From assembly GCA_946405185.1 (NCBI GenBank), contig CAMJGH010000002.1, forward strand, positions 5,761 to 69,760: a DNA stretch of 64,000 nt, in the 5' to 3' direction. Positions within the stretch are counted from its first letter, which is position 1. Each line of letters starts with the position of its first letter. Made by a program: the position numbers and the translations under genes. Below the pieces are notes generated by a model. The model was not told the DNA's origin and did not search any database. It was given only the letters and a program-made list of their open reading frames with translations. Origin of the DNA: an uncultured Lachnospiraceae bacterium (GTDB lineage: Bacteria > Bacillota > Clostridia > Lachnospirales > Lachnospiraceae). Below, piece after piece: positions 2,406 through 31,698 of the stretch.

Positions 2406-3794
2406 ATGAATGCATTGACCGTAAATGAGATCGCGCAGGCCGCCGGCGGCCGCATCCTGTCCGGAAACCCGGAGACAGTGGTGACCAGCCTCGCCATCGA
2501 CTCGCGCGTGGTCACGAACGACTGCCTGTTCATCCCCATCATCGGGGAGCGGACCGACGCGCACCAGTTCCTGCCGGAGGTCTGTGAAGAGGCTGCCGCC
2601 GTGCTCACGAGCGAACATGATGCTGCGCCCGAAAACCCCGGCCGTGCCGCCTGGGTCCGCGTGGACGATACCATCGCGGCCTTATCGGCCATCGGCGCGC
2701 TTTGCCGCAGCCGGGCCATGATCCCGGCCGTGGGCGTGACCGGTTCCGTGGGCAAGACTACCACGCGCGAGCTGATCGCCGCGGCGCTCTCGGCCGGAAA
2801 GACCGTCTACAAGACCAACCGCAACTACAACAGCCGCATCGGCCTGCCCATCACGCTGTCCGAGATGACGAACGATTATGACTGCGCCGTGCTGGAATTG
2901 GGCATGAACGTGCCCGGCGAGCTGACAGACATCGCGAAGCTGGCGAAGCCCGCCTGCTGCGTAGTTACCAACATCGGCGTGGCGCACATGGAGTTTTACG
3001 GCTCGCAGGAAGGCATCTGCCACGAGAAACTCTCCGTGACGCAGGGGATGCTGCCGGGCGGCGTACTCTTTGCCAACGGCGACGATCCCTACCTGCGCAA
3101 ATTCGCACCCGACGTGCCGTTCCCGGTCGTCTTTTTCGGCGAAGGAGAGGACAACGACGTGCGCGCGGTGGATGTGCGCCTGGAAGACGCGCTGGCGCGC
3201 TTTACGGCTGTGCTCGGTGTGGAGCGCGTGCCGGTGTCGCTGTCCGTTCCCGGACGCCACAACGTGCTGAACGCCCTGGCCGCGCTGGCTGTGGCCAGCC
3301 ATTTCGGCGTGGACCTGCACAAGGCCGCCGAAGCCATCGGCGCCTACAAAGGCTATGCCGGGAGGCTTCTGACCACCATCGTGTCCGGTGTGACACTGAT
3401 CGATGACGCCTATAATGCCAGCCCCGCCTCCATGAAGGGCGGCCTGGATATCCTGACCCAGCGCGGCTGTGCGGGCCGCCGCGTCGCGGTGCTGGGCGAT
3501 ATGAAAGAACTCGGTGACCGGACGGATGATTTCCACCGCGAGGTGGGAGACCACGCCGCAGCCCTCCCGCTGGATCTTCTCGTGACCATCGGCAGCAGTG
3601 CCCGATACATCGGTGAAGCGGCCAAAGCCGCCGGCGCCGCGTTTGACGTGATGGGCTTTGAGACCGCCATGGACGCCAAAGACGCGCTGCTTTCGTACGC
3701 AAAGCCCGGGGACATCCTCTACTTTAAAGCCTCCAACAGCATGAAGCTGGGCGCGCTGGCTGCGGCCGTGAAAGACGGCCTGAAAGACGCATGA
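2406..3794 (+). CDS. murF: UDP-N-acetylmuramoyl-tripeptide--D-alanyl-D-alanine ligase
   Basis: Mur ligase P-loop 'GVTGSVGKTTT' and 'DDAYNASPASM' motif. About 460 aa, typical MurF length. Confidence 0.9.
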   Translation: MNALTVNEIAQAAGGRILSGNPETVVTSLAIDSRVVTNDCLFIPIIGERTDAHQFLPEVCEEAAAVLTSEHDAAPENPGRAAWVRVDDTIAALSAIGALCRSRAMIPAVGVTGSVGKTTTRELIAAALSAGKTVYKTNRNYNSRIGLPITLSEMTNDYDCAVLELGMNVPGELTDIAKLAKPACCVVTNIGVAHMEFYGSQEGICHEKLSVTQGMLPGGVLFANGDDPYLRKFAPDVPFPVVFFGEGEDNDVRAVDVRLEDALARFTAVLGVERVPVSLSVPGRHNVLNALAALAVASHFGVDLHKAAEAIGAYKGYAGRLLTTIVSGVTLIDDAYNASPASMKGGLDILTQRGCAGRRVAVLGDMKELGDRTDDFHREVGDHAAALPLDLLVTIGSSARYIGEAAKAAGAAFDVMGFETAMDAKDALLSYAKPGDILYFKASNSMKLGALAAAVKDGLKDA

Positions 3795-6004
3795 TCGCCC
3801 GGTATGCCGGCGTCATCGTGGACGGCAAGGTGGAGGCGCTCGACCGCGTCTTTTCCTACCGCATCCCCGCGGCGCTTGCGGACCGCATCCGGCCGGGCGT
3901 GCGCGTGCGCGTGCCCTTCGGCAAAGGCGATCACGAAAAAGCCGGCTATGTGGTCACGCTTTCGGACCGGACGGATGTGCCGGACGAGAAGATCAAGGAT
4001 CTGCTGGGCGTCAAGGATCTGACGGGCGATGCCGCCGAGATCCGCGTGGCGCTGGCCGCCTGGATGCGCGGCGAGTACGGCTGCACCATGAGCCAGGCCC
4101 TGAAGGTCTGCCTGCCGCCCGCCAAAGCCGCGCAGGTGCGCATCCAGCGCATCCTTCACCTGGCCGCAGACAGGGATCAGGCGAAGGCGCTGCTGGCCGA
4201 AGCGGAGAGGAAGAAACACCACGCCAAGGCCAGACTGATCGCCGCCCTCATCGAAGACCCGTCCGTTCCGCAGTCCGCCGTGACCGGCCGCCTGCAGATC
4301 ACCCGGCCCACCATCGACGCCCTCGTGCGTGACGGCGTCATCCGCGTGGAAGAGCGGGAGATCACCGGCCCCGCGCAGCCGGAGACGGAGCGCGTGAAGA
4401 TCACGCTGAATCCGGACCAGCAGCACATTGCGGATGAGATCTGGCAGGGCTATACGCACGGGGATTCCCGCCCCAGCCTGATCTACGGCATCACCGGCAG
4501 CGGAAAGACCGAGATCTACCTGGAACTGATGGAGCGCGTGATCGCGCAGGGGAAACAGGTGATCCTGCTGATCCCGGAGATCTCGCTGACCTACCAGACG
4601 CTGATGCGCTTTTACCGGCGCCTCGGCCACCGCGTCTCCTACGTGCACTCGCGGCTGACGCCGGCCGAAAAGGCCGAGCAGTTTGCCCGAGCGGCGGACG
4701 GGGAGATCGACGTCATGATCGGCCCGCGCTCGGCGCTCTTCACGCCTTTTGCAAAGCTTGGCTGCATCATCGTGGACGAAGAACACGACGACGCCTACCA
4801 GAGCGATCAGACACCGCGCTACCACGCGGTGGAGACAGCCTTCCATCTGGGAGAACTGACCGGGTCGCTGGTGATTGCCGGTTCCGCCACACCTTCCATA
4901 GACCGGTACGACCGGGCTATGAAAGGCGAACTGCGGCTCTTTTCCCTGACCAGACGCGCCCACGAGGGCGCGCTGCTGCCGGATGTCACCGTCTGCGACA
5001 TGCGCGAGGAGATGAAGAACAAGAACCGTTCCATCTTCTCGGCACCGCTCTGGGAAGCCATCGAAGGGTGCCTGGAGCGCCACGAGCAGATGATGCTGTT
5101 CCTAAACCGCCGCGGCTTTTCCGGATTTGTGTCCTGCCGTTCCTGTGGAACGCCGCTCACCTGCCCGCACTGCGATATCTCGCTGACGGCTCACCGGGAC
5201 GGGCGCCTGCGCTGCCACTACTGCGGCTACACGCGCATCCTCCCGAAACAGTGCCCGGTCTGTGGGTCCGAGTACCTGGCCGGCTTCGGCATGGGCACCG
5301 AGAAGGCCGAAGAGCTGGTGAAGCAGGCTTTCCCCGGTATCCGGACGCTGCGGATGGATGCGGACACCACCTCCGGCAAGGACGGCCACAGCCAGATCCT
5401 GCGCGCCTTCGGCGCCGGGGAGGCCGATGTGCTCATCGGCACCCAGATGATCGTCAAAGGACACGATTTTCCGGCTGTCACGCTGGTGGGCATCCTCATG
5501 GCGGATCTGTCGCTCTACAGTGCGGACTACCGCGCCTCGGAAAAGACCTTCGGGCTGCTCACGCAGGCTGCCGGCCGCGCCGGGCGCGCGGACCTTCCCG
5601 GGCAGGTCATCATCCAGACCTACAACCCGGAGCACTACGCCATCCAGTGTGCCGCCCTGCAGGATTATCCGGCATTCTACGAGCAGGAGATCGCCTACCG
5701 GCAGCTGATGCACTACCCGCCGTGCGGGTATCTGATGAACGTTCAGTTTGCCTCGCCGGATGAGCGCACGGCCGAGCGCGCCGCGGACGACTGCGCCGCG
5801 TTCCTGAAGCGCCAGCCGGAGACATCCGCCTACAAGATGGCCGTCATCGGCCCTGGCTCACCGCACGTGAGCAAGATCAAAGACCAGTACTACCGCCACC
5901 TGATCGTCAAGGCAGAGGACAAGACGGCGCTGGCGGCATTACGGGAAGCCATCCTCCGCCGGGAAGCCGGACCGCGCGTCTGGCTCACCTGTGAGATCCG
6001 ATAA
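3791..6004 (+). CDS. priA: Primosomal protein N' (replication restart helicase PriA)
   Basis: Walker A 'GITGSGKTE', 'VDEEHD' box and Cys-rich zinc module 'CRSCGTPLTCPHCDISLTAHRDGRLRCHYCGY...CPVCGS'. ATGA overlap with the murF stop. Confidence 0.93.
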   Translation: MIARYAGVIVDGKVEALDRVFSYRIPAALADRIRPGVRVRVPFGKGDHEKAGYVVTLSDRTDVPDEKIKDLLGVKDLTGDAAEIRVALAAWMRGEYGCTMSQALKVCLPPAKAAQVRIQRILHLAADRDQAKALLAEAERKKHHAKARLIAALIEDPSVPQSAVTGRLQITRPTIDALVRDGVIRVEEREITGPAQPETERVKITLNPDQQHIADEIWQGYTHGDSRPSLIYGITGSGKTEIYLELMERVIAQGKQVILLIPEISLTYQTLMRFYRRLGHRVSYVHSRLTPAEKAEQFARAADGEIDVMIGPRSALFTPFAKLGCIIVDEEHDDAYQSDQTPRYHAVETAFHLGELTGSLVIAGSATPSIDRYDRAMKGELRLFSLTRRAHEGALLPDVTVCDMREEMKNKNRSIFSAPLWEAIEGCLERHEQMMLFLNRRGFSGFVSCRSCGTPLTCPHCDISLTAHRDGRLRCHYCGYTRILPKQCPVCGSEYLAGFGMGTEKAEELVKQAFPGIRTLRMDADTTSGKDGHSQILRAFGAGEADVLIGTQMIVKGHDFPAVTLVGILMADLSLYSADYRASEKTFGLLTQAAGRAGRADLPGQVIIQTYNPEHYAIQCAALQDYPAFYEQEIAYRQLMHYPPCGYLMNVQFASPDERTAERAADDCAAFLKRQPETSAYKMAVIGPGSPHVSKIKDQYYRHLIVKAEDKTALAALREAILRREAGPRVWLTCEIR

Positions 6005-22927: not shown

Positions 22928-24181
22928 TCACCATTCATCCACGTTCAGTTTCTGTACCTGGGCTTTCTGCTGTTCCTTTTGCAGCTCCGCATAGAACCGC
23001 GCCGTGACCGCCACGCTCTTGTGGTTGAGCTGCTGGCTGGCCAGCTGCACGTTTCCGGTCTGTGACAGGATGCGTGTGGCGCAGGTGGCGCGCAGCTTGT
23101 GCGGCGAGAAGATGTCTTTGTCCGGATAGTCCGGCAGATACGTGCGGACCATTTCCTTGACCATCAGTTCCACCGCGCGCACCGTCATGCGGCCGCCGCG
23201 GGTGGTGATGAACACGGCTTCACAGTTCTTTTTCGGCCCCAGACCGGACCGCCCCTGCCGGCGCATGGCGGAAGCCAGCGCCTCCATATCGCGGTAGAAA
23301 CTCTCGGATTCCTCGGGGTAGGTGTCGCGCACCAGTCTGGCAAAGCCGGCCGTCATGGCGTTCTTCCGGCAGAATTCCAGTTCATCCTCCCCGTACTTTT
23401 CCGTGAGGGAAGAGGGGAGAGACGTACCGTCCAGATACATCTTCAGCGCCTCGGCTACCGCTTCTCCAAAGTACACTTCGTTCTCATCCCCGCCTTTGGT
23501 GACCACCGTAAAACACCCGCGATAGAAGTTGATATCCTGAAGATCCAGCCCCACCAGCTCCGAACACCGCAGCCCGGTGCCCAGAAACGTGCGCAGGATC
23601 GCGTAATTGCGCAACACCAGCCGGTCACGTTTTACCTGCACGGTCTCCGGAATGCTGATGACCACGGGTCTGTCTTCCCCTTCCAGCAGATACTTGTCGT
23701 TGGCCAGCACCCCCGTGAGCAGCCGGGAGGACAGATCCGCATCCAGCCGCACGATCCGGTGGCGGTTCAGCGCCGGATAGGAGAAGAACCGCATGGGGTT
23801 GTGCTCGGTGAAGCCGATGGCGTTCAGGTATTTGTAGAACACCGAGAGCGACGAAAAATACCGCTTGGACGACGCGTTGGTGATCATGCGCACGCGGTGC
23901 AGGTAGTCCCGGTATTCGTTCAGATCCTGGACGGAGAAGACGGTAAACATCTCCATGGGGAAGTCCTTCAGATCCGTTTCCGCCAGCGACGGCACCATTT
24001 CCTTCTCGTATTTCATGAACTCCACCACGTCCGACACGTAGTAGAGCTGCGTCAGCACCTCCTTGGTGCCGCCGGAGATGTGCTGGTAGAACCCCTGCAT
24101 GTAAGAGGGGGCGGTCTTCAGCACACGGCGGATCTTATCTTCAGCCTTGCGGTTCTGTTCATCGCGGTATTCAACAGACAT
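22928..24181 (-). CDS. Tyrosine site-specific recombinase (XerC/D / phage-integrase family)
   Basis: SAM-like N-domain and catalytic-domain residues: 'LRTFLGTGLRCSEL' (Arg), 'HKLRATCATRIL' (H-x-x-R) and 'LNHKSVAVTARFYAE' (His...Tyr). ATG at 24181 follows 'AAGGAGA'. The upstream Met at 24319 has no RBS. Confidence 0.85.
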   Translation of the reverse strand: MSVEYRDEQNRKAEDKIRRVLKTAPSYMQGFYQHISGGTKEVLTQLYYVSDVVEFMKYEKEMVPSLAETDLKDFPMEMFTVFSVQDLNEYRDYLHRVRMITNASSKRYFSSLSVFYKYLNAIGFTEHNPMRFFSYPALNRHRIVRLDADLSSRLLTGVLANDKYLLEGEDRPVVISIPETVQVKRDRLVLRNYAILRTFLGTGLRCSELVGLDLQDINFYRGCFTVVTKGGDENEVYFGEAVAEALKMYLDGTSLPSSLTEKYGEDELEFCRKNAMTAGFARLVRDTYPEESESFYRDMEALASAMRRQGRSGLGPKKNCEAVFITTRGGRMTVRAVELMVKEMVRTYLPDYPDKDIFSPHKLRATCATRILSQTGNVQLASQQLNHKSVAVTARFYAELQKEQQKAQVQKLNVDEW

Positions 24182-24312
24182 GACAGTCTCCTTAAGATTC
24201 AACCCACTGTGACATCGCTTACGGAAGAGGGCAGTTTGATGATAGCACTTCTTCGCATTATGTGCAATACTTCGAAATAATAAATTGATCTGAATCAGAT
24301 ATCCGTTCTTTC

Positions 24313-24341
24313 TTGACAATCTCCCGGATTTCCTTCATACT
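24313..24341 (+). promoter_or_regulatory. Putative sigma-A promoter of the collagen-like gene
   Basis: TTGACA (24313-24318), 17-nt spacer, CATACT (24336-24341). The ORF-track 'start' at 24313 is actually the TTG of this -35. Confidence 0.4.
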
Positions 24342-24399
24342 TTTTCAAGACAAAGATTTTCAGACATTTTTCAATCCTTTATACAGGAGTTATGAACCT

Positions 24400-26433
24400 A
24401 TGAATGACAACACCCCGCATAAGAACCGCACCCGGAAGGGCCTCCTGCTGGCTGCGCTGGCCATCGCCTGCCTGCTGCTGGCTTTCGGCATCGGCACGTT
24501 TGCCGGCGGCCGTGCCGCCAGGAAAGCCGTGCAGAACATCCCGGACACGACCATCAAAGAGGCCGGCGTGAGCGCGGACGGCGATCTGATCATCACACTG
24601 TCTACCGGGAAGACCATTAACGCCGGCCATGTGCTGGGTGCGCCCGGCCGTGACGGCGTTGATGGCAAAAACGGCCAGGACGGCGCTCCCGGCGCCAACG
24701 GTGCAGACGGAAAAGACGGGGCCGACGGCGCTCCCGGTGCTCCCGGAGCCGATGGCCGGAATGGCCTCAACGGTGCCAACGGAGCAGACGGCAAGGATGG
24801 CAGGGATGGCGCAGACGGCAGTGCAGGGCCTGCCGGACCGGCCGGAACCAACGGTACGGACGGGAAAGACGGTGTCGGTGTGTCTTCCGTGACCATCAGC
24901 GCCAGCCAGGAACTGATCATCACCTATACCGATGGTACCGCCCACAACGCCGGCTCTGTGAAGGCCGAAAAAGGCGATACGGGTGCCATAGGCGCGACAG
25001 GAGCCGCGGGAGCAGACGGGACCGGCATCTCCACGGTGGCTGTCAATGACGCCGGTGAACTGGTCCTGACGCTGACGGATGGCTCGGTCCTCAACGTAGG
25101 CCGGGTGGTCGGCCGTGACGGGCAGAATGGCGCCGACGGCAAAGACGGTGCCGATGGCCAGGACGGAAAAGACGGCAGAGATGGCGCGGATGGCCAGGAC
25201 GGAAAAGACGGTGAAAACGGCCAGGATGGCAAAGACGGCAAAGACGGACAGAACGGTGCCGACGGCATAGGCGTTTCGTCTGTCGCCATCTCGGATGATG
25301 GCAGTCTCACCATGACGCTCTCAAACGGGAACAATATAGAACTTGGAAACATCCGGGGAAAGGATGGTGCCCCCGGTGCCAATGGCGCTGACGGCAAGGA
25401 CGGTCAGGACGGCGCAGACGGAAGAGGCATTGAGTCTGCCTCCATCAACGAAGCCGGGGAGTTGGTCTTCACCTTCACGGACGGCTCGACGACGAACCTC
25501 GGCACGGTCGTGGGAAAGGACGGTAAAGACGGAGAGGACGGTGCTGACGGACAGCCCGGAAAGGACGGAAAGAACGGAAACAATGGAAGCAACGGCAAGG
25601 ATGGGGTCGGTATTGAATTGATCCAGAGGATCAATGATGAACTGATCGTAGTACTGACACCCGATTACCGCCCGGTAAACCTCGGCAATATCAAAGGTGA
25701 TAAAGGAGACACCGGAGACACCGGCCGCGGCATTACCGATGTCACTGTAAATGGTGACGGCAATCTGATCATCACCTATACCGACGGGACCACCCAGAAT
25801 GCCGGGCATATTGTCGATAAGAATACCCCCACAGACCCATATGCGATCGGCAGCGTCGTCACGATGGGCAAATACGAGCAGGATAACAACACCTCCAACG
25901 GACCCGAGCCCATTGAATGGATCGTGGTCCAGAATACAGGAAACAAAGCGTTGCTGATGTCCAAATATGTGCTGGAATATATGGCTATGTCGGATTCCCG
26001 GTACATGAGGTCCGCCGTTCGGGAGTTTCTGGAAGGTAATTTTTACTGGAACGCCTTTACCTACGATGAAACGAAAAAGATCCTGGACTCGCATATTCCC
26101 GATCTGAGTGCAGTCACACAAGGCAGAATAAACAATCATGTGTATATCTTCAGTTATGACGAAATAACAGCTCTTTCGCTGAACAACATCGATCTTACCC
26201 CGATTTTCACCCCCTATGTCCTGGCGAGAAACGGCAACAGGGAGGATGACGGCGTCTGGCTGCGGGATGAATATGACGGTTCCGGCAAATCAGGGGGCGG
26301 TAATTGCATCTATCGGACTTATCAAGGGTTCCTGCACATACAAAGTCCGACTGCGTTTACAGTTAACTATGTAATGAAACCAGAGGAGTCCTGCGGCGTC
26401 CGCCCCTCCATGTGGATTTCCATCGAACCGTAA
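24400..26433 (+). CDS. Membrane-anchored mosaic collagen-like (G-X-Y) repeat surface protein with DUF6273-like C-terminal domain
   Basis: ATG 10 nt after 'CAGGAG'. N-terminal TM '[21 protein letters not shown]'. Six G-X-Y runs (by my count about 27, 6, 18, 8, 11 and 4 triplets) alternate with seven ~27-aa modules, e.g. '[27 protein letters not shown]'. C-terminal '[42 protein letters not shown]' resembles DUF6273 (from memory). Confidence 0.8.
24637..25731 (+). repeat. In-frame collagen-triplet / beta-module repeat array (coding)
   Basis: Recurrent 'GGCAAAGACGGn / GACGGCGCn' 9-mers encode GKD/GAD/GQD triplets, interleaved with diverged ~81-nt modules. Confidence 0.85.
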
Positions 26434-26640: not shown

Positions 26641-26699
26641 CTTATACAGAGGGGCAGTTCTGAACCCCGTCAAAACAATCCATGCAAGGGAGAAAGACA

Positions 26700-28106
26700 A
26701 TGAAGAAGATCAACTGGTTCGTGCTCTTGGTCATGACGGCGCTGCTGGCGCTTGCCGGCTGTGGAGGCGGCAAGACGATCAACCTGAATGACTACGTCAA
26801 GGTGACGTTCACCGGCAGCAACGGCTACGGAAAGCCCGAGCTGTCCCTCGATGAAGCAGGCCTTCAGAATGCCATCGACAAGGCGGCCGGCAAGTCCGAC
26901 GAAGAGAAGCTTGGTGCCGTGTGGGCGGCTTCGGGCGCCATGCAGGGAGAGTGGTCCGCTTCCGAAGGCCTCTCCAACGGGGATACGGTGACGTACCACT
27001 TCACCGCCAGCCAGGAGGAGCTTGCCAAACTCAGCAAGGTGCGTTTCCGCTTCAAGGACATCACCGTGAAGGTGACCGGCCTTCCGGAGCGCGAGGTGTA
27101 CGATCCTTTTTCGGAGATTGAGGTGACCTTCGAAGGCTTTTCCGGGAAAGGGGAGGTGAAGATCCAGACGAAGGAACAGACGGTGAAGGGCCTTACGTTC
27201 AAGGCTTCCCAGCCGGAAGGCCTTTCCAATGGCGACACCGTGACCATCACCTGTGAAGCGCCGAACGGCGATCTGGACGCCTACCTGGCCGAAAGAGGGA
27301 TGGCTGCTGAAAAGAGCAGCTGTGACGTGACCGTCTCCGGGCTTACGGAGATGACATCCTTCGATCCGTTCGAGTATATCACGGTGTCCTTTACGGGCAT
27401 CTCGCCGAACGGCTCCATCCAGGTGGAGCAGGCCGGGATGCCGGTCGGCACGCTGCAGTTCATCTGCGAAGAAAGCGGCCACATCATGACCGGCCAGACC
27501 GTCACGCTGAAGATCGACAGCACCGGATATGGCGACATCGTCGATTTCTGCGCGAAGTACGGCTACACGCCTTCACGCCTTTCCTGTGAGTACACGGCCG
27601 ACAGTCTGAACCGGTATGCGACGTCTTTGGATGACGTGTCGGAAGAGGTTCTGGTGCGCGTGGACCGGGCTGCTGAAGATTTCATGCAGGCGTATGCCAA
27701 CAAAGGCATGTCGGGCTTCCCGAACAGCGATTACTACCGCGGTATGACACGCGTGGGCAGCGCCATCATCAGCCGGAAAGATCTGAAGCCGATGCCCACC
27801 AGGCCGACCACCCGCCTGTATGTGCTTTACGAGGTGTCGATGGAGTATGAGGGTACCGCCATGTCCTACTACTATGTCTTTACCTATGACAACGTCCTGA
27901 CCGACGCGCAGGGGCAGATGCAGCTGGATGCGGAATCGTACCGGTATACCGATAACGGATACTTCAAGATGACGCAGGTTGTGTTCGGCAAGGGGCCCAT
28001 TAAGGGCAACTCCGGCTATGGATTCAAATCCGTGCAGGATTTCCTGGACGCAGAGGTGCTTTCAAAGACGGACGAGTATCAGTACGATACCGACCTTCTG
28101 CCGTAA
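26700..28106 (+). CDS. Lipoprotein with three tandem ~80-aa internal repeats plus C-terminal globular domain; function unknown
   Basis: Signal peptide plus lipobox 'LLALAGCGGG'. Repeats are marked by 'V(T/S)FxG..G.G' and 'GLSNGDTVT' ('MTGQTVT' in the third). ATG follows 'GGGAGAAAG'. Confidence 0.75.
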   Translation: MKKINWFVLLVMTALLALAGCGGGKTINLNDYVKVTFTGSNGYGKPELSLDEAGLQNAIDKAAGKSDEEKLGAVWAASGAMQGEWSASEGLSNGDTVTYHFTASQEELAKLSKVRFRFKDITVKVTGLPEREVYDPFSEIEVTFEGFSGKGEVKIQTKEQTVKGLTFKASQPEGLSNGDTVTITCEAPNGDLDAYLAERGMAAEKSSCDVTVSGLTEMTSFDPFEYITVSFTGISPNGSIQVEQAGMPVGTLQFICEESGHIMTGQTVTLKIDSTGYGDIVDFCAKYGYTPSRLSCEYTADSLNRYATSLDDVSEEVLVRVDRAAEDFMQAYANKGMSGFPNSDYYRGMTRVGSAIISRKDLKPMPTRPTTRLYVLYEVSMEYEGTAMSYYYVFTYDNVLTDAQGQMQLDAESYRYTDNGYFKMTQVVFGKGPIKGNSGYGFKSVQDFLDAEVLSKTDEYQYDTDLLP

Positions 28107-28208: not shown

Positions 28209-29744
28209 ATGGACGAAAAGATGCTGCAGCAGGCTGTCACCCGCTTTCAGGCGGGCGATGAGCAAGGCTTCAATATGCTTTACTCCGCGTATTACAACCG
28301 CGTGAAGAGCGGCCTTTACTATATGCTCAATGACGAGCATCTGGCCGAAGACTTCACGCAGGATGCCTTCCTGAAGGTGTACCAATACATCAATCAGCTG
28401 AAAGAACCCGGCAGATTCCCTTACTGGGTAAACAGGATCGCCGCCAACTGCGCGAACGATTATCTGAAGAAAGGCATGGCGACAGAAAAGACGTTCACGT
28501 CGCTGACGCCTGAGGGGGAAGAAGAGTCTGCCTTCCCATCTGACCACTATGTCCGGAATCCGGATGACTATCAGCCGGAGCAGGCCTACAGCCGGCAGGA
28601 GACGCAGCGCCTCATCCGGGAGATCCTGGATGACCTCCCGGATGGCCAGCGCATCTCCGTAACCCTGTACTATTACAACCAGATGAAGGTGAAAGAGATC
28701 GCGGAGATCACCGGCGTCAAGGAGAACGCTGTCAAGCAGTCGCTCTACCAGGCCCGCAAGAAGATCACCGCCAAAGTGGAAGAGTTGGAAAAGAAGGGGA
28801 CGAAGCTGTATTCCCTGGCACCGTTTTCCTTTTTCCTGTGGCTTTTTCACGCCGAGGCCGAAGCCTCCGCACTGGTGGCGGTTTCGGCTGCCGGTGCTTC
28901 CGCGGTGGCAGCTGCAGCCGCTGCTGCGGGAGGCGCCGGTGCTGCGGCCACCGGCAGCGCTGCCATCGGTTCAGCCGGCGGCCTGGGCGCCTGGCTGGCG
29001 GGGCTTCCCGGACTGGCCAAGGCCGGGTTAGGCGTGCTGGTGATGGCTGCCGTCATTGGCGGCGGCATCGGCATTGGCTCTCTGGCCGGGAAAGGAGATC
29101 GACCCCCTTCCCCTGAGACTGTCACCATGATCACCTCGGAAGCCGCCACCGAGTCGTCCACAGCTGAAACCTCCGAAAGCAGCACCGAAGAGACCACACC
29201 GGCCCATGTGCACAACTGGGTGGAAGTGACGGAAACCATCCATCACGACGCGGAGTATGAGGTCATCCCCCACGAAGCAGAAATCAGTACGGAGACGGAG
29301 GTCATCCACCACGACGCGGTGATCCGCACCATCCACCACGAGGCGGAGTATACAGAAGAAACGACGTTCGTCCCAAATGGAGAGACGTACAATATGTACG
29401 CCTGCCCTGCCTGCGGCGCCACGGGGTTCATATATGAAGGCCCCGGCTCTGACATGACGAATCTGCAGAAATATGGCGAGCTCCAACACAATGACGGGTG
29501 CACGGGAAGCGGCGCGCTAGTCCCCGTCACAGGTTACGGGGGAGATTATGAAACCATCCAGGTGCTCCTCCGGGAAGCCTATGACGAAACCGTGCTGGAA
29601 GCGGAGGCCTGGGATGAGACCGTCACCCACACGGTGGTGGAAAAGGAAGCCTGGGATGAGACCGTGCTGGTATCGGACGCGTGGGATGAAACCATAGTCA
29701 CCGGCTGCATCTGCGAGGAGTGCGGCGAGACCAAACCCGACTGA
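28209..29744 (+). CDS. ECF (sigma-70 group 4) sigma factor fused to a TM segment and an extracytoplasmic His/Trp/Cys short-repeat domain
   Basis: Region 2 is 'DAFLKVYQYINQLKEPGRFPYWVNRIAANCANDYLKK'. Region 4 is 'LPDGQRISVTLYYYNQMKVKEIAEITGVKENAVKQSLYQARKKI'. This is followed by an Ala/Gly-rich hydrophobic stretch with TM 'GLGVLVMAAVIGGGIGIGSL', an S/T/E linker and then HHDAEY-type and AWDET-type repeats with two CxxCG motifs. Confidence 0.8.
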   Translation: MDEKMLQQAVTRFQAGDEQGFNMLYSAYYNRVKSGLYYMLNDEHLAEDFTQDAFLKVYQYINQLKEPGRFPYWVNRIAANCANDYLKKGMATEKTFTSLTPEGEEESAFPSDHYVRNPDDYQPEQAYSRQETQRLIREILDDLPDGQRISVTLYYYNQMKVKEIAEITGVKENAVKQSLYQARKKITAKVEELEKKGTKLYSLAPFSFFLWLFHAEAEASALVAVSAAGASAVAAAAAAAGGAGAAATGSAAIGSAGGLGAWLAGLPGLAKAGLGVLVMAAVIGGGIGIGSLAGKGDRPPSPETVTMITSEAATESSTAETSESSTEETTPAHVHNWVEVTETIHHDAEYEVIPHEAEISTETEVIHHDAVIRTIHHEAEYTEETTFVPNGETYNMYACPACGATGFIYEGPGSDMTNLQKYGELQHNDGCTGSGALVPVTGYGGDYETIQVLLREAYDETVLEAEAWDETVTHTVVEKEAWDETVLVSDAWDETIVTGCICEECGETKPD

Positions 29745-29760
29745 AACTCATCACAAACCA

Positions 29761-29788
29761 TATAACCAAAACCCTTTTCAGGCGGTCT
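29761..29788 (+). promoter_or_regulatory. Candidate ECF-type promoter, copy B (TATAACC-N17-GTCT)
   Basis: 'TATAACCaaaacccttttcaggcgGTCT', about 140 nt upstream of the XRE gene start. Confidence 0.45.
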
Positions 29789-29929
29789 TTCCTAACAGGA
29801 GGGGCCGCCTGAACGCATATCAGCACCTGATGGACTGTTTACGATACGGCAACTTTCATAAGCCCAACAGTCACCCTCTTATGAGTACAATTATATAGTT
29901 ATGCCAAAGCCATAAGGAGGTGACAGATT

Positions 29930-30235
29930 TTGGAGCACTTGGCTGAAAAACTGAAGCTGGCGCGTCAAAACGCGCATCTGACGCAGGCCCAGGTGGCTTC
30001 CATGGTCGGACTGAACAAAGCGGCTATCTCTACCTACGAGACCGGCACCAGAAGGCCTTCGTTTGAAGTCTTATGCCGGCTTGCGTCCATATACAAAGTG
30101 AGCGTCGATTACCTGTTTGGACTGTCTGAAAGCAGCTCCATCCAAACGGAAGGCCTGACCGCCGAAGAGACGGAGCTGATCCGTTCACTCATCCGGATCA
30201 TGGAAAAGAAGCACCCGGAGACAGGCGAAAAATAA
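29930..30235 (+). CDS. XRE-family helix-turn-helix transcriptional regulator
   Basis: TTG start 9 nt after 'AAGGAGG'. 'LKLARQNAHLTQAQVASMVGLNKAAISTYETGTRRPSFEVLCRLASIYKVSVDYLFG' is a canonical Cro/C1 HTH. Confidence 0.85.
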   Translation: MEHLAEKLKLARQNAHLTQAQVASMVGLNKAAISTYETGTRRPSFEVLCRLASIYKVSVDYLFGLSESSSIQTEGLTAEETELIRSLIRIMEKKHPETGEK

Positions 30236-30248
30236 TGTCCAGAAACCG

Positions 30249-30276
30249 TATAACCTTTTCCGTTCTCAGGCGGTCT
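30249..30276 (+). promoter_or_regulatory. Candidate ECF-type promoter, copy C (TATAACC-N17-GTCT)
   Basis: 'TATAACCttttccgttctcaggcgGTCT'. The GTCT ends 30 nt before the 30307 ATG. Confidence 0.45.
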
Positions 30277-30306
30277 TTATCTATGAGATCCAAAAGGAGG
30301 ACCATC

Positions 30307-31698
30307 ATGAAAAAACACATCGCCATTCTGACCGTCACCTGTATCATCCTGATCCTTTCCGGCTGCCGGAAAGCCACGCAGGCGGACACGCTGCCGGAAA
30401 CCACCGCTCAGACCGCTGCCGTGGAGACCACAGAAGAGAACACCCCGGCGTCCACCGAAGAAGAGCTTCAAACGGCAGACGAGGCTTCCCGTGAGCCTTC
30501 CACCAGACGTGATCACGCTTACAGACCGACCGGGAAAGCCCTCGCGGTGCATGCCCGGCCCGCCGGAAAGGCCGGCATGACGTCTGAGGCATCCGCCGAG
30601 GCTGACGCCTCCGAAGAAGCCCTCGGGCTTCCGGCTGCGGCGGACGCCGCGGAAAACGTCAATCCCTCTGCCGCTCAGCCGACCGCTCCCACACCGGCAG
30701 AGAACGCCTCTCAGGAAGCACGCGCTGCCGAACCCGCACCGGCGCCCACCGAGACTCCCGCTGCTCCCGCACAGACACCGGCAGCGCAGGAGAGTGCCGC
30801 CCCCGCTCCTGCAGCACCCGCTCCCGCAGAAACCGCTGCTCCCACCGCTCCGGCGCCTGCCTTTACAGAAGGCTTCAACAACGCCAAGGCGTCCGAATTT
30901 GTCCAGCAGCTCAATGCGTTCCGTCAGGCTAACGGCCTTCCTGAAGTGCGTTGGGATGATACGTGCGCACAGGTTTCCGCGGAACTGAGCGCAAAGCGCA
31001 GCACCGGCGTGGCGACGGACGTGACGGAAGAGCACCTGAAGCGGCTGAACTGCAATACGATGCATTACGTCAGCATGTACGGTCCGGCCTCCGAAACCGC
31101 TGCAAAGCATTTCACAGGATTGAAAAACTATCCCGGCGAACCCGAGAAGCTGCTGGATCCGTCCCTCACCCGCATCGGTGTCGCTTTCTACGATCATATG
31201 AGCGCCCAGGGAGAATGGTGCGACGGATATCTGATCCTGGCGCCGGATGCGTTAAGCGCACCCATCTATATACCCGAGACCGAACCGGCACCTGCCTTCG
31301 ATCCGTATTTCGATGAAGCCGCGGCCATGCAGTGCTTTGAACTCACCAACGAGCTGCGCAGAAGCCTGGGACTCCCGGAACTGGTCTGGGACAGTGCCTG
31401 CCTTCAGGTATCCAATGTCAGAGCGCAGCAGCTGCCGGCAAACTGCACCCACGACCTCTTCTGGAGCGAGTTTGTCAAGGTGATGGGAGATCAGACGCCT
31501 TGTGCGGAAAACATCATGCACAGCCGCAGCACCTGTGACGGAGCCGTTGCTTTTGAGGGCTGGAAAAACTCCCCCAGTCACTACGCCGCCATGGTCAATC
31601 CGGCATACACCCGCGTGGCCATCACCATCTACCAGGTGATGTATGAAGGCGTCCCCTCCACCTTCGGCGTGATGATCCTGGCCGGACCCACACCGTGA
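30307..31698 (+). CDS. Lipoprotein with long Ala/Pro/Glu/Thr linker and two CAP/SCP (PR-1, YkwD-like) domains
   Basis: ATG 6 nt after 'AAGGAGG'. Lipobox 'ILILSGC'. The second domain has the CAP hallmarks 'AENIMH' and 'EGWKNSPSHYAAMVNPAYTRVAI'. The first domain is degenerate ('FVQQLNAFRQANGLPEVRWDD'). Confidence 0.75.
   Translation: MKKHIAILTVTCIILILSGCRKATQADTLPETTAQTAAVETTEENTPASTEEELQTADEASREPSTRRDHAYRPTGKALAVHARPAGKAGMTSEASAEADASEEALGLPAAADAAENVNPSAAQPTAPTPAENASQEARAAEPAPAPTETPAAPAQTPAAQESAAPAPAAPAPAETAAPTAPAPAFTEGFNNAKASEFVQQLNAFRQANGLPEVRWDDTCAQVSAELSAKRSTGVATDVTEEHLKRLNCNTMHYVSMYGPASETAAKHFTGLKNYPGEPEKLLDPSLTRIGVAFYDHMSAQGEWCDGYLILAPDALSAPIYIPETEPAPAFDPYFDEAAAMQCFELTNELRRSLGLPELVWDSACLQVSNVRAQQLPANCTHDLFWSEFVKVMGDQTPCAENIMHSRSTCDGAVAFEGWKNSPSHYAAMVNPAYTRVAITIYQVMYEGVPSTFGVMILAGPTP

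Follow-up and report, generated by a model that had tools for sequence, protein, structure and literature searches.

IutY of Pseudomonas putida (ECF243), a sigma factor of the extracytoplasmic function (ECF) type, is a sigma/anti-sigma hybrid that is released by Prc and RseP, and for SCO4117 of Streptomyces coelicolor (ECF52), which carries a proline-rich region and a carbohydrate-binding ectodomain, proteolytic activation is expected as well (PMC8999054). Among surface proteins of Gram-positive bacteria, the Periscope proteins contain repeats whose number varies among relatives and sets the projection of a terminal domain (PMC8201768), and PrgA of Enterococcus faecalis (pCF10) is described as protruding ~40 nm from the wall, presenting a CAP/protease domain there and processing the adhesin PrgB (bioRxiv 10.1101/2020.06.18.156562). 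The gene considered here lies at 28209..29744 on the plus strand of a stretch of 64,000 nucleotides from an uncultured Lachnospiraceae bacterium (assembly GCA_946405185.1, contig CAMJGH010000002.1, positions 5,761 to 69,760; hereafter the window). According to the list of open reading frames it encodes 511 residues, which comprise an ECF sigma factor, a predicted membrane helix, a linker and, as residues 332-511 (nt 29202-29744), a repeat module of 180 residues. In our preferred reading, which we hold to be fairly probable, this module is a hairpin that closes like a zipper, bears a metal clasp at one end and a small finger at the other, and acts as the outer domain of a tethered ECF sigma factor, serving as a stalk or sensor whose proteolysis would release the sigma domain.

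The module begins with AHVHNW (aa 332-337), which is followed by four His units, TIHHDAEYE (aa 343-351), VIPHEAEIS (aa 352-360), VIHHDAVIR (aa 365-373) and TIHHEAEYT (aa 374-382). Next come YACPACGATGF with the central CxxC (C399, C402), a spacer of ~53 aa that contains H427 and C431, and four acidic units, EAYDETVLEA (aa 456-465), EAWDETVTHT (aa 466-475), EAWDETVLVS (aa 480-489) and DAWDETIVTG (aa 490-499). The C-terminal end, CICEECGETKPD, holds C500, C502 and C505 and thus a terminal CEECG. All of these repeats and Cys motifs are present as an earlier reading of the DNA made without database searches (hereafter the sequence-only reading) had quoted them, and when the 180 module residues were shuffled 200,000 times, no shuffle contained A[WY]DET four times, [HP]H[DE]A four times or even two of each. 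In the DNA of the module, Tandem Repeats Finder detected no tandem array; unit pairs are 52-81% identical at the DNA level and the same residues are frequently encoded by different codons. The units are therefore not recent DNA duplications, but old repeats whose motif is maintained by selection on the protein.

How the two arrays relate to each other is best seen among the relatives of the module. While a word-indexed search gave 47 matches, an exhaustive HMMER search (E ≤0.001) places the family at no fewer than 291 clusters at 50% identity, at least 291 being the lower bound, with 41 of the 291 matching at 1e-10 or better. The order that prevails in the family is [H/C]xHxW, a first arm, a piece with Cys and His residues (the tip), a second arm and, at the extreme C-terminus, GY.C(x1-2)CG.xK, the first and the last of these motifs forming the two halves of what we call the clasp. 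The arms are built from two types of unit, h (9 residues, T-V-H-H-D-A-x-Y-x) and w (10 residues, x-A-W/Y-D-E-x-V-x-V-x), and the number of rungs ranges from 1 to ~25. When both arms of 138 proteins were read from the clasp inward to the tip, a count that makes no use of AlphaFold2 (AF2), 415 of the 426 facing unit pairs were h:w and the other 11 homotypic (h:h or w:w). For the 66 proteins whose arms are mixed, there were 224 heterotypic and 11 homotypic pairs, as against 127 and 108 in a parallel-register control. Where the first arm consists of h units and the second of w units, the unit numbers are equal (one facing one in 5 proteins, two facing two in 23, three facing three in 10, four facing four in 2 and five facing five in 1), and the few off-diagonal counts are mostly off by one, as a crude unit pattern would lead one to expect. 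These counts indicate that each h unit faces a w unit, and we regard this heterotypic pairing, read here from sequence, as the main result of the analysis.

If h faces w, the two arms must be reverse complements of each other. Indeed, some relatives have the w arm first and the h arm second, and mixed arms read hwwww/hhhhw, hhhhww/hhwwww, hhhhhhw/hwwwwww or wwwwwh/whhhhh. The corresponding count tuples, (1,4,4,1), (2,1,1,2), (3,1,1,3), (4,2,2,4) and (6,1,1,6), point to one nested hairpin rather than two local ones. Insertions are mirrored as well: the window protein has four extra residues between units 2 and 3 of either arm, STET on the His arm and THTV on the acidic arm, and the same +4/+4 is found in P0050, to which it is 46% identical. 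P0152 has the spacing [2,0,2,2,0,2] on both arms, and in P0094 the first arm reads [2,0] and the second [0,2], a pattern compatible with an antiparallel order only; P0146, with +2 on a single arm, is a counter-example to this mirroring. Two further ideas were given up. For proteins of the layout N-h-w-finger-h-w-C, a rule of two local hairpins accounted for 7 of 33 and the nested rule for 17 of 33, with 5 fitting both. Residue-level mutual information between facing units was set aside, since the anchoring of the units shifts by one residue and the proteins are relatives of each other.

The module is predicted to be a single long two-stranded antiparallel beta hairpin. For residues 325-511, submitted to AF2 with 10 relatives, the model has a mean pLDDT (predicted local distance difference test) of 80 and shows one long hairpin whose arms span query residues 13-74 and 114-178, the ascending repeat blocks scoring 92-96 and the descending ones 88-97. 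Projected onto the gene, all on the plus strand, the ascending arm with its four h units spans aa 343-382 (29235..29354), the tip aa 383-455 (29355..29573, with C399 and C402 at nt 29403-29414, H427 at nt 29487-29489 and C431 at nt 29499-29501) and the descending arm with its four w units aa 456-499 (29574..29705), both arms being supported by the repeats and by the AF2 strands. Breaks of two residues interrupt the strands at the (D/E)-Ala of every unit and are placed as mirror images on the two arms. To within one residue, this arrangement would put His-His opposite Asp-Glu and Ala opposite Ala, and such facing would account for the exclusive pairing of h with w. The model of P0015, whose arms are mixed (hwwww, tip, hhhhw), reaches a pLDDT of 90.6, with arms at 11-76 and 106-170 that run unbroken and without a turn at the h-to-w junction, and its tip consists of short strands and a helix (89-98) bearing an invariant H95. 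In both models the last long strand ends at the CxxC, and the HxH stands immediately ahead of the first strand.

A biased composition (E, T, H, D and V) and a predicted template modelling score of just 0.38-0.40, together with the low confidence of the tip, might suggest that the module is largely a disordered, low-complexity spacer rich in acidic residues and His, and that the hairpin is an artefact of its repetitiveness. We consider this most improbable. The matched unit numbers, the pairing of 415 against 11, the mirrored insertions and the co-occurrence of the ligands described below are all independent of AF2, the motif is kept across Bacillota and Actinomycetota, and a low template modelling score is expected because the molecule would be rod-shaped. 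Rather than a disordered region with unconserved Cys and His, the outcome that would have spoken against the sequence-only reading, we find repeat blocks with a pLDDT of 88-97 and Cys and His positions that are kept among the relatives.

The Cys and His residues appear to make up two separate sites. The N-terminal half of the clasp, H333-V-H335-N-W337, lies at 29205..29219 and the C-terminal half, C500-I-C502-E-E-C505-G506, at 29706..29726 (both plus strand), the latter having a Cys for the usual Tyr of the family motif GY.C(x1-2)CG. HxHxW occurs in 114 relatives, and CxHxW, with Cys for the first His, in 7, a substitution that thus retains a metal ligand; within the last 18 residues, 124 relatives have CxxCG and 30 have CxCG. 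Both halves are present in 129 proteins and neither in 21, with 24 discordant (Fisher p = 1e-12), several of the discordant cases being artefacts of the pattern. The central C-x1-2-C has partners of its own, since in 113 of 120 relatives two more His or Cys follow within 45 residues, typically as C-x11-17-H-x3-12-[H/C]. Given that HxHxW and CxxCG occur together and that the central CxxC has its own His/Cys partners, two independent sites are favoured over a single Cys4 site. We therefore look at them as a clasp at the open end, for which sequence and models favour H333, H335, C502 and C505, and a separate finger at the tip, for which they favour C399, C402, H427 and C431. Judging from the types of ligand, the clasp metal is probably zinc, and an extracellular zinc site is plausible because the surroundings of anaerobes are reducing.

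The sequence-only reading had drawn the sites differently, combining the central CPAC and the terminal CEEC into one Cys4 zinc ribbon that clamps the two arrays, and taking the His/Asp/Glu periodicity for an extracellular row of metal or cation sites. It is true that both CxxC motifs are conserved in most relatives, that a weak, sub-threshold Pfam zinc-ribbon match (E 0.056, the best obtained) falls on the central motif, albeit of one relative only, and that the abundant His and carboxylate side chains are potential metal ligands. However, both AF2 models place one CxxC at either end of the ~60-residue arms, not next to each other as the co-conserved knuckles of a zinc ribbon would be. The terminal CxxCG varies with HxHxW rather than with the central motif, and it is retained in P0003, whose tip is devoid of Cys, and in P0005 and P0007, whose tips have no CxxC. 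Moreover, two neighbouring His would be a poor chelating pair because they point to opposite faces of a strand. A Cys4 ribbon with a metal row is, in our estimation, very unlikely. What stands from this proposal is the periodicity itself, for which a string of metal sites is less apt than a cross-strand pairing code, and weak metal binding by the ladder of His and carboxylates is possible.

The two sites resemble known ones in part. The tip, with its C-x(1-2)-C, a His on a predicted helix and then a His or Cys, is reminiscent of classical (beta-beta-alpha) C2H2 fingers and of zinc ribbons, and the clasp, like many structural zinc sites to which it can be likened, combines two His and two Cys. 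Unlike C2H2 fingers and zinc ribbons, the sites would be extracellular, no Pfam model reaches its threshold (best E 0.056-0.087), and the ligands of the clasp come from the two ends of the module, ~165 residues apart. The zf-C2H2 match itself, in P0006, is weak (E = 0.087), and the tip of the window protein departs from the usual spacing (x24) and has a pLDDT <50.

Beyond these sites, the module, which the sequence-only reading could not assign, matches no named family. Searches of the module and its relatives against Pfam (5 relatives) and NCBIfam gave sub-threshold matches only (zinc ribbon 0.056, zf-C2H2 0.087, DUF6884 0.019), a sequence profile of the module had 0 matches in the PDB, and Foldseek returned nothing at E 0.001 or better for the two models against the PDB, nor against BFVD. 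Comparison by tblastn with PLSDB plasmids and INPHARED phages gave no match to the module, and a full-text search of the literature for six motif strings gave no relevant one, only chance occurrences of AYDEQV in papers on Brucella epitopes. At their source, family members are named solely 'hypothetical protein', and none has a Pfam domain across the module. PF01473, PF19127 and PF19085, which describe choline-binding and CROP-type repeats, do not match the module; such domains occur as a separate fusion partner (P0152) or in a neighbouring gene (beside P0235).

The family is found in Lachnospiraceae, Oscillospiraceae, Erysipelotrichaceae, Christensenella, Bifidobacterium, Micrococcales, Nocardioides and Coriobacteriia (Collinsella, Gordonibacter, Olsenella), the closest matching loci being from Oscillospiraceae and 'Firmicutes bacterium CAG:176'. 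A typical relative has a signal peptide or lipobox, then a low-complexity linker and then the module, and additional partners are an LPXTG anchor (P0026), SLH, PG_binding_1, choline-binding repeats and DUF4214; at locus L058 a likeness to L,D-transpeptidase was read by eye. These signal peptides, lipoboxes and wall-binding partners, together with the sigma-fusion kin that have their single membrane helix in the same place, bear out the view of the sequence-only reading that the module is an ectodomain. From its sequences and models, we regard the module as a real, widespread and undescribed architecture of Gram-positive surface proteins, the defining trait of which is its complementary repeat arms. 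A sub-family consisting of P0058, P0133, P0149 and P0155 (and also P0026 and P0042) has neither half of the clasp; besides w and h units, which alternate in some cases, its members have a signal peptide and end in a sorting signal or membrane anchor, indicating that h:w pairing occurs in other layouts too.

What the hairpin is for may be sensed from its largest version. P0049 (1126 aa) contains ~25 h units with an exact period of 9 residues, the finger, an insert of ~480 aa with transglutaminase-like and BspA-LRR parts, ~23 w units with a period of 10 residues and the terminal CxxCG; if folded as predicted, its stalk would be ~70 nm long. The best reading of such sequences is that the module is a stalk that carries cargo, and the variant tips of P0003, P0005 and P0007 are in support of it.

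It is possible to imagine that the hairpin does not stand alone, but is the protomer of an oligomer, joining others along its edges into a beta barrel, tube, sheet or fibre in the manner of beta pore-forming toxin stems, or adds to the strands of a partner such as a neighbouring thioester adhesin. Its two-stranded ribbon leaves two free edges, the column compositions show that Val, Leu, Trp and Tyr are kept in each unit, and the only neighbours found by Foldseek, none of them significant, are the pore stems of lysenin, anthrax PA, CDTb and iota Ib and the tail knobs of phages, which likewise contain very long antiparallel hairpins. In addition, of the 68 loci whose downstream sequence is long enough, 23 have a gene for an adhesin of 1,200-2,000 aa on the same strand, 30-900 nt downstream of the module gene (these include L002, L004, L006, L009, L018, L021, L030, L034, L035, L039, L043, L050-L052 and L065), and the three adhesins that were scanned have thioester (TED), SpaA and T-Q-ester domains. 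The conjugation of pLS20 depends on thioester adhesins of a similar kind (PMC8092201). The same loci contain open reading frames that, read by eye, resemble ParA, ParB, relaxase, integrase and topoisomerase, which points to mobile elements.

Nevertheless, we think an oligomer or partner-strand role unlikely. The structural matches have an E of 0.048 (the best of one model, 0.16 being that of the other) or worse and a template modelling (TM) score ≤0.2; the arms are highly charged and show no alternating apolar stretch, and the N-terminus is held by a long linker. Pore stems exist only inside oligomeric barrels, with an apolar membrane-spanning turn and without repeats, clasp or finger, whereas the tip of the module is a Cys/His finger rather than a membrane-spanning turn and its arms are rich in D, E and H.

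The zipper hairpin is joined to a sigma factor, a feature that was absent from the sequence-only reading. The N-terminal ~200 residues of the window protein are an ECF sigma factor: its sigma-70 domain (group 4) at aa 1-195 (28209..28793) is matched by TIGR02937 at 5.5e-27, sigma-2 by PF04542 (Sigma70_r2, 7.4e-13, aa 24-88) and sigma-4 by PF08281 (Sigma70_r4_2, 1e-14, aa 134-186), and Pfam gives no match to sigma region 3 or region 1 at E up to 1. The protein thus has sigma-2 and sigma-4 without sigma-3 and sigma-1.1, the combination by which ECF factors are recognised among sigma-70 proteins. Shortly after sigma-4 there is a conserved hydrophobic motif, LYSLAPFSFFLWLFH (aa 200-214, 28806..28850), that recurs in P0156 (GLVPLFPALF) and P0236 (KKGTKLYSAPIIPFIIWML); the three membrane-tethered proteins share ELEKKGTKLYS.P followed by this hydrophobic helix (aa 189-214 in the window protein, nt 28773-28850). 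It is possible, from its sequence and position, that this motif is an inhibitory element acting in cis in place of a classical anti-sigma domain, or else a membrane-associated helix. An Ala/Gly-rich segment (aa 216-262) then leads to the predicted single transmembrane helix (aa 263-295, 28995..29093, with a Kyte-Doolittle window maximum of 2.09), and a low-complexity linker rich in Ser, Thr and Glu, recognised by reading the sequence, connects the helix to the module (aa 296-331, 29094..29201). All of these elements are on the plus strand, and linkers of a similar kind join the module to its anchor in relatives.

A search with residues 1-330 returned 66 further proteins with the same sigma domain, mostly of 450-570 aa and with unrelated C-terminal tails, and a single hydrophobic segment near aa 250-330 is seen in nearly all of the full-length ones. 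Since sigma domain and helix are shared and the tails differ, the window gene belongs to a family of tethered ECF sigma factors with exchangeable outer domains. Copies of the whole protein with the same gene neighbours exist in other assemblies, P0048 being 99% and P0253 96% identical, and the 96%-identical copy differs in length solely in the Ala/Gly stretch and keeps every candidate His and Cys ligand. A search with the window's sigma domain (phmmer) found no ECF sigma gene beside 79 loci of the module family, so that the module is not generally the partner of a sigma factor in the manner of an anti-sigma factor. At locus L080, an 824-aa choline-binding/Big_2 surface protein is encoded (2941-5415) directly after the clasp-bearing sigma fusion P0235, which hints that such sigma factors control surface proteins.

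According to our preferred reading, residues 332-511 would form one antiparallel beta ribbon, a zipper hairpin ~20 nm long at ~0.33 nm per residue. Its ascending arm would consist of four 9-residue h units (T-[VI]-H-H-[DE]-A-x-Y-x) and its descending arm of four 10-residue w units ([ED]-A-[WY]-D-E-T-V-x-x-x). The open end would be stapled by the four-ligand site of H333 and H335 with C502 and C505, most likely through zinc, and the closed end would bear the small separate finger. Such a module could serve as a rigid, length-adjustable stalk that holds a small binding domain out past the cell wall, and in other family members the tip or the descending arm can carry other domains. In the window protein the module may be the sensor end of a sigma/anti-sigma hybrid in one polypeptide, with binding or unfolding on the outside leading to proteolysis and to release of the sigma domain inside.

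Several observations weigh against this reading. No anti-sigma domain, neither a ZAS zinc finger nor a FecR-like domain, was found between sigma-4 and the membrane helix when the whole protein was searched against Pfam and NCBIfam at E up to 1. The Ala-rich residues 219-241 exceed the hydrophobicity threshold as well, which raises a topology with two helices that would place the module inside the cell, although we consider this unlikely. Sigma fusions are just 3 of the family members seen (the window protein with P0048, P0156 and P0235), and one of them, P0156, has neither half of the clasp. At the tip of the window protein, the ligands are spaced C-x2-C-x24-H-x3-C, which makes this protein an outlier among its relatives, and query residues 87-110 of the model have a pLDDT <50. 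The cross-strand register is uncertain by one residue in the models, and a lone two-stranded ribbon of 20 nm with conserved Val, Leu, Trp and Tyr may need partners or self-association for its stability.

A more far-reaching scenario is that the hairpin is not only a stalk, but opens and closes. The zipper could sense zinc, pH or redox state, with the clasp and the His/carboxylate ladder keeping the hairpin closed only while zinc is at hand or the His residues carry a suitable charge; once it is open, its arms would become accessible to a site-1 protease, and the sigma factor would thereby be released. In favour of this, each unit contributes one rung of a His pair and a carboxylate pair, the four-ligand clasp co-occurs as a metal site would, the module is joined to the sigma factor via one membrane helix, and IutY is known, as ECF52 is expected, to be activated by proteolysis. 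On the other hand, most family members have no fused signalling domain, the neighbours of the gene include no metal transporter or pH-related gene, and P0156 manages without a clasp, so this sensing zipper appears rather unlikely to us. In its boldest form, in which the two unit types act as a two-letter pairing code for beta strands, an analogue of base pairing, and the zinc clasp and His/carboxylate rungs make the zipper reversible, loss of zinc, a change in pH or redox state or a pull on the tip would expose the tether to proteolysis and free the sigma factor; we would count this, too, as improbable, if only a little less so.

If the zipper hairpin is real, it would be a rod made from one beta hairpin whose arms use two complementary repeat alphabets and which is stapled by a metal site at the ends of the chain, a principle that we have not found described. 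Several hundred unannotated surface proteins of Bacillota and Actinomycetota from gut and rumen would receive a name and a fold, and protein design would gain a programmable rod scaffold whose length can be tuned. A further kind of sensor domain would be added for single-polypeptide ECF sigma factors and, should the reversible zipper hold, so would a new means of passing a signal across the membrane.

The region around the gene (24-34 kb) has a GC content of 0.55-0.59, as against 0.61-0.65 in the flanks, where chromosomal genes for a PASTA kinase, a penicillin-binding protein, MutL and RluD are found. A tyrosine integrase gene (22928-24319, minus strand) stands back to back with a gene for a 706-aa protein with collagen triple-helix repeats and a C-terminal DUF6273 (24313-26433, plus strand). 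The integrase, the collagen-repeat gene and the drop in GC suggest a small island integrated in a chromosomal region. On the plus strand, a predicted lipoprotein of 474 aa without a Pfam match is encoded at 26682-28106, 102 nt upstream of the sigma fusion, and downstream follow an HTH_3 regulator (29930-30235) and a secreted protein of 487 aa with an Ala/Pro-rich linker and two stretches matching the CAP model (30235-31698), the stop codon of the HTH_3 gene overlapping the ATG of the CAP-domain gene; no adhesin gene follows the sigma fusion in the window. A CAP gene near the module recalls the CAP domain borne on the stalk of PrgA, perhaps by coincidence, perhaps not. The order of lipoprotein, sigma fusion, HTH_3, CAP and proteins of 167 and 375 aa is kept in another assembly (L083), and these genes may thus form the sigma factor's own unit. 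At 29777-29813, 33 nt past the stop codon of the sigma fusion, a 9-bp stem (TTCAGGCGG/CCGCCTGAA) encloses a loop of 19 nt, and no T run is present; a role as terminator or as regulatory hairpin is possible.

As a stalk, the module invites comparison with the fibrillar proteins of the Gram-positive surface. In Periscope proteins and other stalks built from SHIRT, G5-E, Rib or SpaA/CnaB domains, the repeat number varies between relatives as it does in the hairpin family. These stalks, however, are strings of independently folded domains that run in one direction, whereas the hairpin would be a single rod with both ends of the chain at the same end, so that a change in length needs a matched change on both arms. 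The units of the window protein also differ from Periscope-type repeats in not being identical at the DNA level (52-81%), models of stalk domains gave no Pfam match on the module of the window protein or of 5 relatives, and the predicted fold is not one of beads on a string. The stalk of PrgA is an alpha-helical chain folded back on itself, and prgA adjoins prgB. The likeness to it lies in the many hairpin-module genes that stand directly upstream of a gene for a large LPXTG-type adhesin on mobile elements and in the CAP-domain gene two genes downstream in the window. In contrast to PrgA, the module is predicted to be a beta ribbon and shares no similarity of sequence or fold, and the window gene is not beside an adhesin gene.

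The whole protein compares most closely with the hybrid ECF sigma factors. Like IutY (ECF243), SCO4117 (ECF52) and the groups ECF48 and ECF53, the window protein has an N-terminal ECF sigma factor, a membrane helix and an outer domain behind a low-complexity linker; to judge by its sequence, it carries the C-terminal extension of membrane helix and outer domain that characterises sigma/anti-sigma hybrids. It differs from them in having no detectable ZAS or FecR-like domain, in an ectodomain that is unrelated to theirs and in its host, a high-GC bacterium that is neither an actinomycete nor a pseudomonad. Whereas the protein as a whole belongs to the known type of sigma/anti-sigma hybrids, what is new about it lies in the architecture of the module.

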